DNA from: Octopus sinensis
Lineage: Eukaryota
Length of the DNA: 64,000 bases
Assembly: GCF_006345805.1 (NCBI RefSeq)
Contig: NC_043024.1
Coordinates: 20,150,001-20,214,000, forward strand
Reading direction: 5' to 3'
A model generated the notes under the pieces. It searched no databases. It was not told the DNA's origin and saw only the letters and a program-made list of their open reading frames with translations. A program made the position numbers and the translations under genes. Positions 9,050 to 23,690 of this stretch are shown here, one piece after another; the first letter of the stretch is position 1; every line of letters starts with the position of its first letter.

Positions 9050-9383
9050 AAAAATAGCTTATTTACGTAAGATTTATCCTCATCTCCTGCGAAATAGTCT
9101 CGTTGTACAGAAATACACATTCTTGGTATCCGGACTGAACGTCGTTCCGGTAAGCGAGTCGAAGAATTTCTGCGATTTGTTCTTGATGTCGACAACGGTG
9201 TTAAAAGGGTGACCTTCGAGGTGCATTTTCATCTTGAGGAGGAAATGGAAGTCCGCAGGGGCGAAAGCTGTTGTATAGGGTGGGTGCTGAAGCGGTATCA
9301 TGTTGTTTTGGGAGAGAAACTCCTGAACGAGGCAACCTTGTTGACGGTGCTTTGTCGTCGGGAGGAATCCAGTTCTTTGCGCG
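9050..9383 (-). pseudogene. Mariner transposase, C-terminal half (decayed)
   Basis: LWRAKNWIPPDDKAPS (cf. WILHHDNAPAH), HPPYTTAFAPADFHFLLKMK (cf. HPPYSPDLAPCDFFLFPKLK) and CISVQRDYFAGD (cf. CIxxxGxYFEGD). Confidence 0.85.
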
Positions 9384-12300
9384 CCACAAACGTGCCCCAC
9401 AAGCCGGCTCCACAAATGCGCTACATAAAACGCCATACACAAACCCGCTGCACAAACGCGCTCCATAAACGCGCACCTCAAACTCGCTCCACAAATCCGC
9501 CCCACAAACGCCCTACACCAACTCGCTCCACAAACGCGCACCTCAAACTCGCTCCACAAACTCGCTCCACAAACTCGCTCCACAAACTCGCTCCACAAAC
9601 TCGCTCCACAAACTCGCTCCACAAACGCCCTACACAAACTCGCTCCACAAACTCGCTCCACAAACTCGCTCCACAAACTCGCTCCACAAACTCGCTCCAC
9701 AAACTCGCTCCACAAACGCCCTACACAAACTCGCTCCACAAACTCGCTCCACAAACTCGCTCCACAAACTCGCTCCACAAACGCCCTACACAAACTCGCT
9801 CCACAAACTCGCTCCACAAACTCGCTCCACAAACTCGCTCCAAAAAATCGCTCCACAAACGCCCTACACAAACTCGCTCTACAAACTAGCTCCACAAACT
9901 CGCTCAGCAAACTCGCTCCACAAACTCGCTCCACAAACTCGATCCACAAACTCGCTCCACAAACGCCCTACACAAACTCGCTCCACAAACTCGCTCCACA
10001 AACTCGCTCCACAAACTCGCTCCACAAACTCGCTCCACAAACTCGCTCCACAAACCCGCTCCACAAACGCCCTACACAAACTCGCTCCACAAACGCGCAC
10101 CTTAAACTCGCTCCACAAACTCGCTCCACAAACTCGCTCCACAAACGCCCTACACAAACTCGCTCCACAAACCCGCCCCACAAACGCCCTACACAAACTC
10201 GCTCCACAAACCCGCTCCACAAACTCGATCCACAAACTCGATCCACAAACCTGCTCCACAAACTCGATCCACAAACCTGCTCCACAAACCCGCTCCACAA
10301 ACTCGATCCACAACTCGCTCCACAAACCCGCTCCACAAACTCGATCCACAAATCGCTCCACAAACTCGCTTCACAAACACGCGCACCTCAAACTCCGCTC
10401 CAAAACCCGCCCCACAAACGCCTACATAAACTCGCTCCCAAACCGCCCCACAAACGCCCTACACAAACTCGCTCCACCAAACCCGCCCCACAAACGCCCT
10501 ACACAAACTCGATCCACAAACGCGCACTCAAACTCGCTCCACAAACTCGCTCCACAAACCCGCACCACAAATCCACCCCACAAACTCGCTCCACAAACGC
10601 GCACCACAAACTCGCTCCACAAACTCGCTCCACAAACCCGCACCACAAATCCACCCCACAAATTCGCTCCACAAACGCGCACCACAAACCCGCTCCACAA
10701 AATCGATCCACAAACTCGCTCCACAAACTCGCTCCACAAATCCACTCCACAAACTCGCTCCACAAACGCCCTACACAAACTCGCTCCACAAACCCGCCCC
10801 ACAAACGCCCTACACAAACTCGCTCCACAAACCCGCCCCACAAACGCCCTACACAAACTCGCCCCACAAACTCGCTCCACAAACTCGCTCCACAAACCCG
10901 CCCCACAAACGCCCTACACAAACTCGCCCCACAAACTCGCTCCACAAACTCGCTCCACAAACCCGCCCCACAAACGCCCTACACAAACTCGCTCCACAAA
11001 CCTGCCCCACAAACGCCCTACACAAACTCGATCCACAAACGCGCACCTCAAACTCGCTCCACAAACTCGCTCCACAAACCCGCACCACAAATCCACCCCA
11101 CAAACTCGCTCCACAAACGCGCACCACAAACTCGCTCCACAAACTCGCTCCACAAACTCGCTCCAGAAACCCGCACCACAAACCCGCTCCACAAACTCGC
11201 TCCACAAACGCGCACCACAAACCCGCTCCACAAACTCGCTCCACAAACTCGCTCCACAAATCCACTCCACAAACTCGCTCCACAAACGCCCTACACAAAC
11301 TCGCTCCACAAACCCGCCCCACAAACGCCCTACACAAACTCGCTCCACAAGCCCGCCCCACAAACGCTCTACACAAACTCGCCCCAAAAACTCGCTCCAC
11401 AAACCCGCCCCACAAACGCCCTACACAAACTCGCCCCACAAACTCGTCCACAAAACTCGCTCCACAAACCCGCCCCACAAACGCCCTACACAAACTCGCC
11501 CCACAAACTCGCTCCACAAACCCGCCCCACAAACGCCCTACACAAACTCGCCCCACAAACTCGCTCCACAAACCCGCCCCACAAACGCGCACTACAAACT
11601 CGCTCCACAAACTCGCTCCACAAACTCGCTCCACAAACTCGCTCCACAAACCCGCTCCACAAACTCGATCCAAAAACTCGCTCCACAAACTCGCTCCACA
11701 AATCCACTCCACAAACTCGCTCCGCAAACGCCCTACACAAACTCGCTCCACAAACCCGCCCCCAAACGCCCTACACCAACTCGCTCCACAAACCCGCCCC
11801 ACAAACGCCACCCCAACCTACACAAACTCGCCCCACAAAAACTCGATCCACAAACTCGCTCCACAACCCGCCCCCACAAACGCCCCCTACATAAACTCGC
11901 TCCACAAACCCGCCCCACAAACGCGCACCTCAAACTCGCACCACAAACTCGCCCCACAAACTCGCTCCACAACGCGCACCACAAACTCGATCCACAAACG
12001 CGCACCTCAAACTCGCTCCACAAACTCGCTCCACAAACTCGATCCACAAACTCGATCCACAAACTCGATCCACAAACTCGCTCCACAAACTCGATCCACA
12101 AACCCGCTCCACAAACTCGATCCACAAACTCGATCCACAAACTCGCTCCACAAACTCGCTCCACAAACTCGCTCCACAAACTCGCTCCACAAACTCGCTC
12201 CACAAACTCGCTCCACAAACTCGCTCCACAAACCCGCTCCACAAACGCCCTACACAAACTCGCTCCACAAACGCGCACCTTAAACTCGCTCCACAAACTC

Positions 12301-21300: not shown

Positions 21301-23331
21301 TCCACCCCACAAACTCGATCCACAAACTCGCTCCACAAACTCGATCCACAAACTCGATCCACAAACTCGCTCCACAAACCCGCTCCACAAACCCGCTCCA
21401 CAAAATCGATCCACAAACCCGCTCCACAAACTCGCTCCACAAACTCGCTCCACAAATCCACCCCACAAACTCGATCCACAAACTCGCTCCACAAACTCGA
21501 TCCACAAACTCGATCCACAAACTCGCTCCACAAACCCGCTCCACAAACCCGCTCCACAAACTCGATCCACAAACCCGCTCCACAAACTCGCTCCACAAAC
21601 TCGCTCCACAAACTCGCTCCACAAACCCGCTCCACAAACTCGATCCACAAACTCGCTCCACAAACTCGATCCACAAACCCGCTCCACAAACTCGATCCAC
21701 AAACTCGATCCACAAACTCGATCCACAAACTCGCTCCACAAACTCGATCCACAAACCCGCTCCACAAACTCGATCCACAAACTCGCTCCACAAACTCGCT
21801 CCACAAACCCGCTCCACAAACTCGATCCACAAACTCGCTCCACAAACTCGCTCCACAAACTCGATCCACAAACCCGCTCCACAAACTCGCTCCACAAACT
21901 CGCTCCACAAACTCGCTCCACAAACTCGATCCACAAACACGCTCCACAAACTCGATCCACAAACTCGATCCACAAACTCGCTCCACAAACTCGCTCCACA
22001 AGCCCGCCCCACAAACTCGATCCACAAACCCGCTCCACAAACTCGCTCCACAAACTCGCTCCACAAATCCACCCCACAAACTCGATCCACAAACTCGATC
22101 CACAAACTCGATCCACAAACTCGCTCCACAAACCCGCTCCACAAACCCGCTCCACAAACTCGATCCACAAACCCGCTCCACAAACTCGCTCCACAAACTC
22201 GCTCCACAAACCCGCTCCACAAACTCGATCCACAAACTCGCTCCACAAACTCGATCCACAAACCCGCTCCACAAACTCGATCCACAAACCCGCTCCACAA
22301 ACTCGATCCACAAACTCGATCCACAAACTCGATCCACAAACTCGCTCCACAAACTCGATCCACAAACCCGCTCCACAAACTCGATCCACAAACTCGCTCC
22401 ACAAACCCGCTCCACAAACTCGATCCACAAACTCGCTCCACAAACTCGCTCCACAAACCCGCTCCACAAACTCGATCCACAAACTCGCTCCACAAACTCG
22501 CTCCACAAACTCGATCCACAAACCCGCTCCACAAACTCGATCCACAAACTCGATCCACAAACCTGCCACAAAACCCGCTCCACAAACTCGCTCCACAAAC
22601 TCGCTCCACAAATCCACCCCACAAACTCGATCCACAAACTCGCTCCACAAACTCGATCCACAAACTCGATCCACAAAACTCGCTCCACAAACCCGCTCCA
22701 CAAACCCGCTCCACAAACTCGATCCACAAACTCGCTCCACAAACTCGCTCCACAAACTCGCTCCACAAACTCGCTCCACAAACCCGCTCCACAAACTCGA
22801 TCCACAAACTCGCTCCACAAACTCGATCCACAAACCCGCTCCACAAACTCGATCCACAAACTCGATCCACAAACTCGATCCACAAACTCGCTCCACAAAC
22901 TCGATCCACAAACCCGCTCCACAAACTCGATCCACAAACTCGCTCCACAAACTCGCTCCACAAACCCGCTCCACAAACTCGATCCACAAACTCGCTCCAC
23001 AAACTCGCTCCACAAACTCGCTCCACAAACCCGCTCCACAAACTCGCTCCACAAACTCGCTCCACAAACTCGCTCCACAAACTCGATCCACAAACCCGCT
23101 CCACAAACTCGATCCACAAACTCGATCCACAAACCTGCTCCACAAACCCGCTCCACAAACTGGATCCACAAACTCGCTCCACAAACGCGCACCTCAAACT
23201 CGCCCCACAAACTCGCCCCACAAACTCGCTCCACAAACCCATTCCACAAACTCGCTCCACAAACTCGCTCCACAAACGCGCTCCACAAACACGCTCCAAA
23301 AACGCGCTCCGCAAACCCGCGTCACAAACCC
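9384..23331. repeat. 13-bp satellite array (CACAAACTCGCTC and variants), ~1,070 copies
   Basis: Uninterrupted 13-nt periodicity; translated period of 13 aa (WSEFVERVCGASL) equals 3 units; variants end in TCGATC, CCGCTC, GCCCTA, GCGCAC or TCCACCC. Confidence 0.97.
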
Positions 23332-23690
23332 GTTTTCGCCGTATGTCCTCCCTCAACCGCTTCAAAACGACGTTGATTGTTCTCCGACGATTCTCAAACA
23401 CAATTTGATGCATTTTCTCCGTGTTTCCGGGTGTTACGCTCGTAGCGGATCTTCCAGATTCCACATCGTCTTCCAGAGACGTTAATCTTCTCTTGAATCG
23501 CCCGTTTCACATCTGACATTCCGTATGAACGATTGCCTCGTTGCCGTAAGCTTGCTGAAGCATGTTCAATGACTTTGTAGCAGATTTCCCAAGAACTCAA
23601 GTAGAATCTGTGTGTGTGCTTATTATTAGCTTGTTGACCCTCCCAATAAACAACAACTATTGTTCGACACTCAAGTTCGCACAAAGAATT
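23332..23690 (-). pseudogene. Mariner transposase, N-terminal half (internally deleted)
   Basis: LGKSATKSLNMLQQAYGNEA, then RFKRRLTSLEDDVESGRSATSVTPGNTEKMHQIVFENRRRTI, joined to VLKRLREDIRRKR. Confidence 0.85.

Follow-up and report, generated by a model that had tools for sequence, protein, structure and literature searches.

A giant single-locus minisatellite that probably arose in place from the coding region of a dead mariner copy in Octopus sinensis

The window analysed here is a stretch of 64,000 nucleotides of the Octopus sinensis genome (NCBI RefSeq assembly GCF_006345805.1, scaffold C28 = NC_043024.1 of 20,263,137 bases, positions 20150001-20214000), in which a long tandem array of 13-bp units separates the two halves of a mariner transposon copy. 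The array was parsed by wrap-around alignment into 1,070 units on the minus strand at 9382-23332, Tandem Repeats Finder (TRF) gave a period of 13 and 1,069.9 copies at 9380-23329, and the array is free of N, the sole N run of the window being found at 28228-28327. A first-pass annotation of this DNA had described a 13-bp array of about 1,000 units, a satellite apparently grown from inside a mariner transposase gene; an array of that order is present, and the translations of its flanks read as they were written there.

On the minus strand the translation of the right flank closes with ...VLKRLREDIRRKR and that of the left flank opens with LWRAKNWIPPDDKAPS, where copies of the host family read RKRPDLWSAKNWILHDDNAPCH. 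The family residues across this junction are R-K-R-P-D-L-W-S-A-K-N-W, and the array is positioned at the RPDLWS codons. It stands in for exactly one 13-mer of the family, CGGATCTGTGGAG, with exact register on its 3' side and the loss of four further element bases on its 5' side. The consensus unit of the array, CGAGTTTGTGGAG, is identical to this 13-mer at 10 of 13 positions. The element core has CGGA before and CGCG after, and a CGCG-type unit matches the element at 12 of 13 positions. The cyclic unit was compared with every 15-base window of the element, 1,812 over the two strands, with the junction as the single best; 92 of 20,000 shuffled units scored 13/17 within four bases of it (p ~0.005). 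The predicted resemblance between the family junction and the repeat unit is thus borne out. The C of the element is retained in none of the 1,070 units, and the C-to-T change therefore likely predates the amplification.

Among the best genome matches (40 scored per flank, from separate sets of 1,074 and 1,411 candidates), each flank was found to match an abundant repeat family at 72-79%, and both halves occur in order in 19 of the 22 family copies fetched, which supports the proposal of collinear flanks from a single mariner family. The alignment of 21 of the 22 copies describes a 920-bp element with inverted ends and TA, and at least 167 exact junction matches and more than 1,000 candidates of the family are present in the genome. 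Judged by its Mos1-type helix-turn-helix (HTH), its catalytic HDNA and YSPDL motifs and its inverted repeats with TA, the host family is a mariner (Tc1/mariner, DD34D); the catalytic motifs of family copies read WILHDDNAPCH and PPYSPDLAPADF. In the window, positions 23510-23593 match Pfam HTH_48 (E=0.00074, 20 bits, under the cut-off of 24.1, over a 28-residue piece) and the 3' half matches the SETMAR/Hsmar1 transposase domain (E=0.0014), while a longer family copy, L005, matches both SETMAR (E=0.0006) and Mos1 (E=0.01). The window fragments gave no match to Pfam Transposase_1, and protein homologue searches with the 3' half, alone or together with edge units, found nothing. Weak Pfam matches to PD40, Amanitin, TatA and Kelch were taken as chance.

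The host copy itself is already dead, being internally deleted, 5'-truncated and 17% decayed. Compared with L005 it has lost about 390 bp internally, by a deletion common in the family; it is also without the first ~245 bp of the element including the 5' inverted repeat, carries a stop and frameshifts, and has YTTAF in place of the family's YSPDL among its decayed catalytic motifs. The full open reading frame (ORF) and both inverted repeats of an autonomous mariner are thus absent, and the array lies in a non-autonomous copy and not, as first described, in a transposase gene. Its two halves are 17.1% and 16.9% distant from the family majority. A distinct sister subfamily was rejected as the cause of this divergence, as the best genome matches reach only 72-79% and the catalytic motifs are broken. 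The extent of the element was also revised: the family match starts at 23593 and not at 23690, and the element continues beyond 9050 to about 8262.

Within the assembly the array is unique. The searches covered 2.72 Gb including unplaced contigs, and copies outside the assembly are possible. All 376 matches to a two-unit pattern and all 390 to a three-unit pattern fell in the window, as did 517 of 522 to a looser pattern; four of the others are different repeats without surrounding mariner and one is not listed. The older arrays elsewhere whose existence would have contradicted the first-pass annotation were accordingly not found in the assembly. With 1,070 head-to-tail units of 13 bp, within the 10-100 bp range of minisatellites, a unit that matches the host transposon at the interruption and a transposon collinear on both sides, the array is a single-locus giant minisatellite very probably derived from a transposable element (TE). 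The word satellite, in the family sense, does not apply: classical satellites are very long or multi-locus and make up a sizeable genome fraction, and this is one 14-kb locus in a 2.7-Gb assembly.

The right junction is crossed by a single-copy contig of X1 short reads (23300-23569, depth 53, one difference, about 31 bases across), and the bases of the right flank were confirmed by short reads. Cover at this junction was low in the X20 run, and the stretch also holds a short repeat that is very frequent.

The outermost units differ from the interior. The dominant CGAG tetramer occurs in none of the 12 outermost units and in 667 of 1,058 interior units, whereas ancestral-type tetramers, counted with six units a side, are found in 6 of 12 and 96 of 1,058, respectively. 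The edges show CGCG and the forms that CpG decay makes of it (CGTG, CACG and CGCA). Edge units are 10.8% and 16.5% diverged from the CGCG-type unit, and 10 of the 12 are singletons. This decay is similar to that of the host, so the birth of the array is likely old, with recent turnover confined to the interior. A direct snapshot of satellite birth is therefore not supported. Variants in the interior form a patchwork, and their proportions shift along the array. The proposed grading of edge units into transposase sequence holds in one register, where the CGCG tetramer is kept at the edges, and fails in the other. High abundance of the mariner family was likewise seen in a run from another organism (at one bin, summed depth of 30,636 against 26,149).

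Smaller arrays were found in sister copies of the same family, in searches that are exact-pattern samples and not a census. A gap pattern on the 13-mer motif gave 21 matches, two of which are single duplications in mariner copies (L063 and L064). A control pattern at another element site unexpectedly recovered in-register arrays of 18-bp units, and a hotspot at the 13-mer site is unsupported, given 2 of 21 single duplications there against more arrays at the control site. The duplications in L063 and L064 (~1490-1550) are templated, involve the DLW-codon motif, lie each beside a deletion and look like scars of template-switch repair. The hosts of the three 18-bp arrays have no more than 1-3 derived differences in common, where the background median is 2, and the three origins are therefore independent; each array lies 3-5.5 Mb from a scaffold end. 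Segmental duplicates of the 29-unit locus number four, with 8.4 units each (L185, L186, L194 and L195 are also among the matches listed). Two of these duplicates sit on an unplaced contig, which may contain the same loci a second time. The top-ranked microhomology of the element was tested by prediction and yielded a 19-bp duplication and a 6.3-unit array. At both sister positions short flanking direct repeats are clear, with 9/9 bases (lag 19) and 7/8 bases (lag 18). The family thus presents a ladder from 2 to ~1,070 units over three sites, with independent in-register arrays of 6, 8, 13, 23 and 29 units at the two sites other than that of the giant array; these are probably successive stages in the making of minisatellites.

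We consider it very probable, from the sequence, that the array arose by local tandem duplication within a dead mariner, followed by slippage, by a variant sweep that left the edges frozen, and by unequal exchange on the kilobase scale; the molecular routes are those of established minisatellite biology. A non-autonomous mariner would have inserted and decayed, with the C-to-T change arising in the future unit before amplification. Template switching or end-joining repair at a weak GAnCG microhomology may then have duplicated the 13-mer, with the loss of four bases. Slippage would have added units and the derived CGAG variant would have swept the interior, leaving edge units to freeze and decay because they cannot misalign outward. 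Once long, the array may have gained further blocks of kilobase size through unequal exchange between sisters or homologues, a process that its distal position probably helped. Single duplications of the motif occur in L063 and L064, and the sister arrays (L168, L169, L188 and L212) show that in-register growth recurs in the family. What is well supported in the earlier description is that a 13-bp stretch of the mariner coding region was amplified in place.

Several observations speak against this account. The consensus unit is identical to the element at only 10 of 13 positions, and three changes must be assumed. The microhomology at the founding site extends to 4 of 5 bases (GAnCG, lag 13) and ranks 698th among 8,420 sites; with a seed this weak, the Haber-Louis model in its reported form (Haber and Louis 1998, cited in later work, as are Jurka and Gentles 2006, Kelly, and Bois) does not single out the array site. 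At a predicted 7/7 lag-13 site, GCAGTGA, two pattern matches were found, neither in the element. Measured against the 13-mer in CGGA phase, edge units resemble the element no more than those of the interior do, and the widths for the edge comparison were picked after looking, on units that are not independent. Read support is confined to the right junction, the left junction and the 14-kb length being assembly-based, and the sample behind X1 is possibly that of the assembly itself. An empty orthologous allele did not turn up: cover was lacking at 23712-23804 in X14 and at the array edge in X19 (76% of the run read), and such holes prove nothing.

The assembled length deserves separate consideration. 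Block duplications are found in the array at lags of 65, 89, 168 and 225 units, with 2-20 substitutions in the duplicated blocks against 167-252 in control stretches of 1.6-2.0 kb. The 2.2-kb duplication reflects either recent unequal exchange or an assembly duplicate. Of the 700 central units 116 carry indels, compared with 2 of the 358 units towards the ends, so noisy reads may account in part for the 14-kb total and for the two largest duplications. It is possible, although we rather doubt it, that the size is in part an artefact of noisy long reads or of two stitched alleles that doubled the 2.2- and 3.0-kb blocks, in keeping with duplicated blocks that differ by ~0.6-1.3% substitutions plus many 1-base gaps; the true array would then, with the same reservation, perhaps be nearer 9 kb or vary between haplotypes. 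There is however no gap inside the array, and block duplication is seen in the clean region too, in two shorter instances with 505 matched bases and 1 gap and with 550 matched bases and 0 gaps, so that it is real there. Such an artefact would leave the origin unchanged and is compatible with amplification in place.

Other explanations of the locus itself are much less probable. The array could instead have originated in a different mariner copy, or in a satellite block missing from the assembly, and have reached this site by homology-directed repair or as inserted circular DNA. Assemblies collapse or drop satellites, the loss of four bases at one junction would fit a repair event and one match of the loosest pattern is not listed, but we hold this route to be very unlikely: neither a second array nor a dimer is found in the 2.7 Gb, the decayed ancestral-type units are in register at both edges, unlike a transplanted homogenised block, and any donor would itself have to derive from the same site of the same family. 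A chance resemblance, in which two mariner fragments came to lie side by side through an unrelated repeat or through a scaffolding join at a repeat, is scarcely credible. The abundance of the family, whose fragments often lie near repeats, lends this some plausibility; the halves nevertheless meet to the base on one strand with equal decay and a similar transversion excess (9.1% and 9.6%), and the match of the unit has the low p value given above. Selection for a structural role, as subtelomeric chromatin, G-quadruplex or protein-binding tract, is likewise improbable. The strong strand asymmetry (GC skew ~-0.72), the CpG observed/expected ratio of 2.1 and the position near a scaffold end would suit such a role, yet the array is a single locus that other chromosome ends lack, only three three-tier quadruplex motifs occur across its 14 kb, and no Rfam family was matched within 7000-26000 of the window. 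Hairpin-driven expansion was rejected for the interior units, which form no stable hairpin (z +1.9 to -0.2). Hairpins and quadruplexes do not explain the array, which most likely evolves neutrally as a hypervariable locus; we propose no function for it.

The array lies ~90 kb from the scaffold end, and no telomere tract was found at this nearby end of C28. The 100-N scaffold gap at 28228-28327 is situated ~5 kb to the right of the array, and its placement near a chromosome end thus rests on scaffolding. The last 180 kb of C28 also hold longer-period tandem repeats of 485, 297, 40 and 160 bp (window 30808-31941; L124:7928-9398; L126:6610-7011; L131:6465-7265), which suggests a duplication-prone end region. 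Arrays of 13, 23, 29 and ~1,070 units are found 5.5, 3.5, 3.0 and 0.09 Mb from scaffold ends.

For the window host the rate of non-CpG transversions was 0.100, and the hosts of the arrays of 29, 23, 13 and 6 units gave 0.127, 0.064, 0.048 and 0.029, against a background median of ~0.034 in the 26 of 30 pattern-picked copies with enough overlap (Mann-Whitney p=0.014), a background that is drawn from the two largest chromosomes and does not separate a regional from an array effect. The window host (9032-9381 and 23333-23593) thus stands at ~3 times the usual rate, and the hosts of the larger sister arrays are elevated too, with 2-4-fold more flank transversions at the larger arrays. A broader and doubtful proposal would be that this old mariner family amounts to a natural experiment in the birth of minisatellites across the genome, that its copies, once identical and numbering thousands, seed duplications at predictable microhomologies, that only copies near chromosome ends run away, position and not seed deciding which become giants, and that growing arrays mutate their neighbourhood.

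The window copy keeps 24 of 39 CpG sites. Two classes can be told apart among family copies L084-L113, one in which CpG sites are kept and one in which they have decayed (17 of 24 against 0-5 of 24 sites remaining, for example); mosaic methylation is the likely background.

The 3' inverted repeat of the host is interrupted by a young fragment of a long interspersed nuclear element (LINE; 8294-9031), which we take to be RTE-like and which is bordered by an imperfect target duplication of ~10 bp. It is about twice as diverged as its best matches, in a comparison that is biased. No host exon was evident by eye among the long frames. The features of the locus and the sister arrays are collected in Table 1.

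Table 1. Positions of the array, its host mariner and the sister arrays (window coordinates unless a locus is named)
Feature	Position	Strand	Basis
13-bp tandem array of 1,070 units; variants interspersed, turnover regional	9382-23332	minus	TRF, alignment parse
Five outermost 5' units, decayed: CGGG, CGGG, CGCG, CGTG, CGCG; without dominant CGAG	23268-23332	minus	unit alignment
Seven outermost 3' units, all singletons, CGCG and CpG-decay forms CGCA, CACG; in register into element	9382-9473	minus	unit alignment
Mariner 5' half: HTH-coding region, internal-deletion junction ~45 bp before array	23333-23593	minus	blastn 82.9% to family majority 246-508; HTH_48; X1 contig
Mariner 3' half: decayed catalytic-domain region and start of 3' inverted repeat	9032-9381	minus	78% to family majority 517-904; SETMAR domain
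Rest of mariner 3' inverted repeat, ending TA	8262-8293	minus	sequence structure
Young LINE fragment, 5'-inverted, 158-bp internal tandem duplication, inside mariner 3' inverted repeat	8294-9031		96-98% to other copies
2.2-kb block duplication (9981-11950 vs 12159-14100; 12 substitutions, 1,877 matches)	9981-14100		self-comparison of array
3.0-kb-lag block duplication (14520-16130 vs 17510-19090; 20 substitutions, 1,527 matches), indel-rich centre	14520-19090		self-comparison of array
18-bp array, 13.4 units	L168:1348-1589, C15:62.4 Mb		
18-bp array, 29.4 units	L169:1456-1985, C15:64.85 Mb		
18-bp array, ~23 units, 36-bp higher-order period	L188:1500-1912, C23:3.5 Mb		
19-bp duplication at strongest microhomology	L211:1485-1531		
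6.3-unit 19-bp array at strongest microhomology	L212:1501-1619		

The origin of minisatellites inside transposons (Alu, B1, MaLR) is already known. Origins of the mouse expanded simple tandem repeats (ESTRs) Ms6-hm and Hm-2 in long terminal repeats (LTRs) of MaLR elements and of the B1-derived (GGCAGA)n family are tabulated in PMC6947457 and PMC9659126, and Ms6-hm appears as an unstable ESTR in PMC3404076. These loci and the window array have in common that a short unit was amplified inside one copy of a dispersed transposon. The mouse cases concern non-coding parts of retroelements and units of 4-6 bp, whereas here a variant-rich 13-bp unit stems from the coding region of a DNA transposon.

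TE-derived minisatellites of the human genome number 7,276 and are mostly single-locus (5,747 of 5,932 clusters), the Alu-derived ones having a mean of 2.3-2.4 units (Ahmed and Liang 2012, PMC3389668; 'Mariner' and 'DNA transposon' are absent from its main text). The short-direct-repeat model is among the subjects reviewed in PMC6947457, together with B1- and Alu-derived arrays. The human arrays likewise represent duplication of TE sequence in situ at short direct repeats, and the sister arrays at 9/9 and 7/8 microhomologies fit that model; the window array differs in having ~1,070 units and in lying at a weak microhomology.

The use of TE ORFs as satellite sources, Xenopus miDNA4 within a Tc1/mariner miniature inverted-repeat transposable element and the LINE-1 ORF2 satellites PROsat and Pvc20 are among the cases given in PMC9659126, and arrays expanding from inside LTR elements (PisTR-A in the Ogre 3' untranslated region; Lathyrus) are treated in PMC7004042. 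As in the window, the Ogre, LINE-1 ORF2 and miDNA4 arrays lie inside a TE and expand occasionally. Those satellites are, however, multi-locus families, and many stem from repeats already present in the element and dispersed with it; in the present case the element is without an array, the array arose in a single immobile copy and has not spread, and its expansion is distal rather than pericentromeric. The joining of the Mboumar mariner to satellite DNA in Messor ants, as mentioned in PMC9659126, is the reverse arrangement, with the mariner inside the satellite, whereas the window array is enclosed by a mariner copy to whose sequence it corresponds. No published case of a mariner coding region as source was found in searches of open-access papers, and PMC13282606 has nothing to add on this point. 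The mariner coding-region source, the size and the within-family ladder are what is new here.

The start of minisatellites is difficult to study, since the state that precedes a repeat is usually lost; at this locus the ancestral state survives in many sister mariner copies, and these give direct access to the founding unit, to its earliest mutations and to the sweep that followed. With one family, three sites and arrays from 2 to ~1,070 units, the octopus mariners offer a test of the relative parts played by seed microhomology, position and age in the growth of an array, and of whether arrays increase mutation in their flanks.

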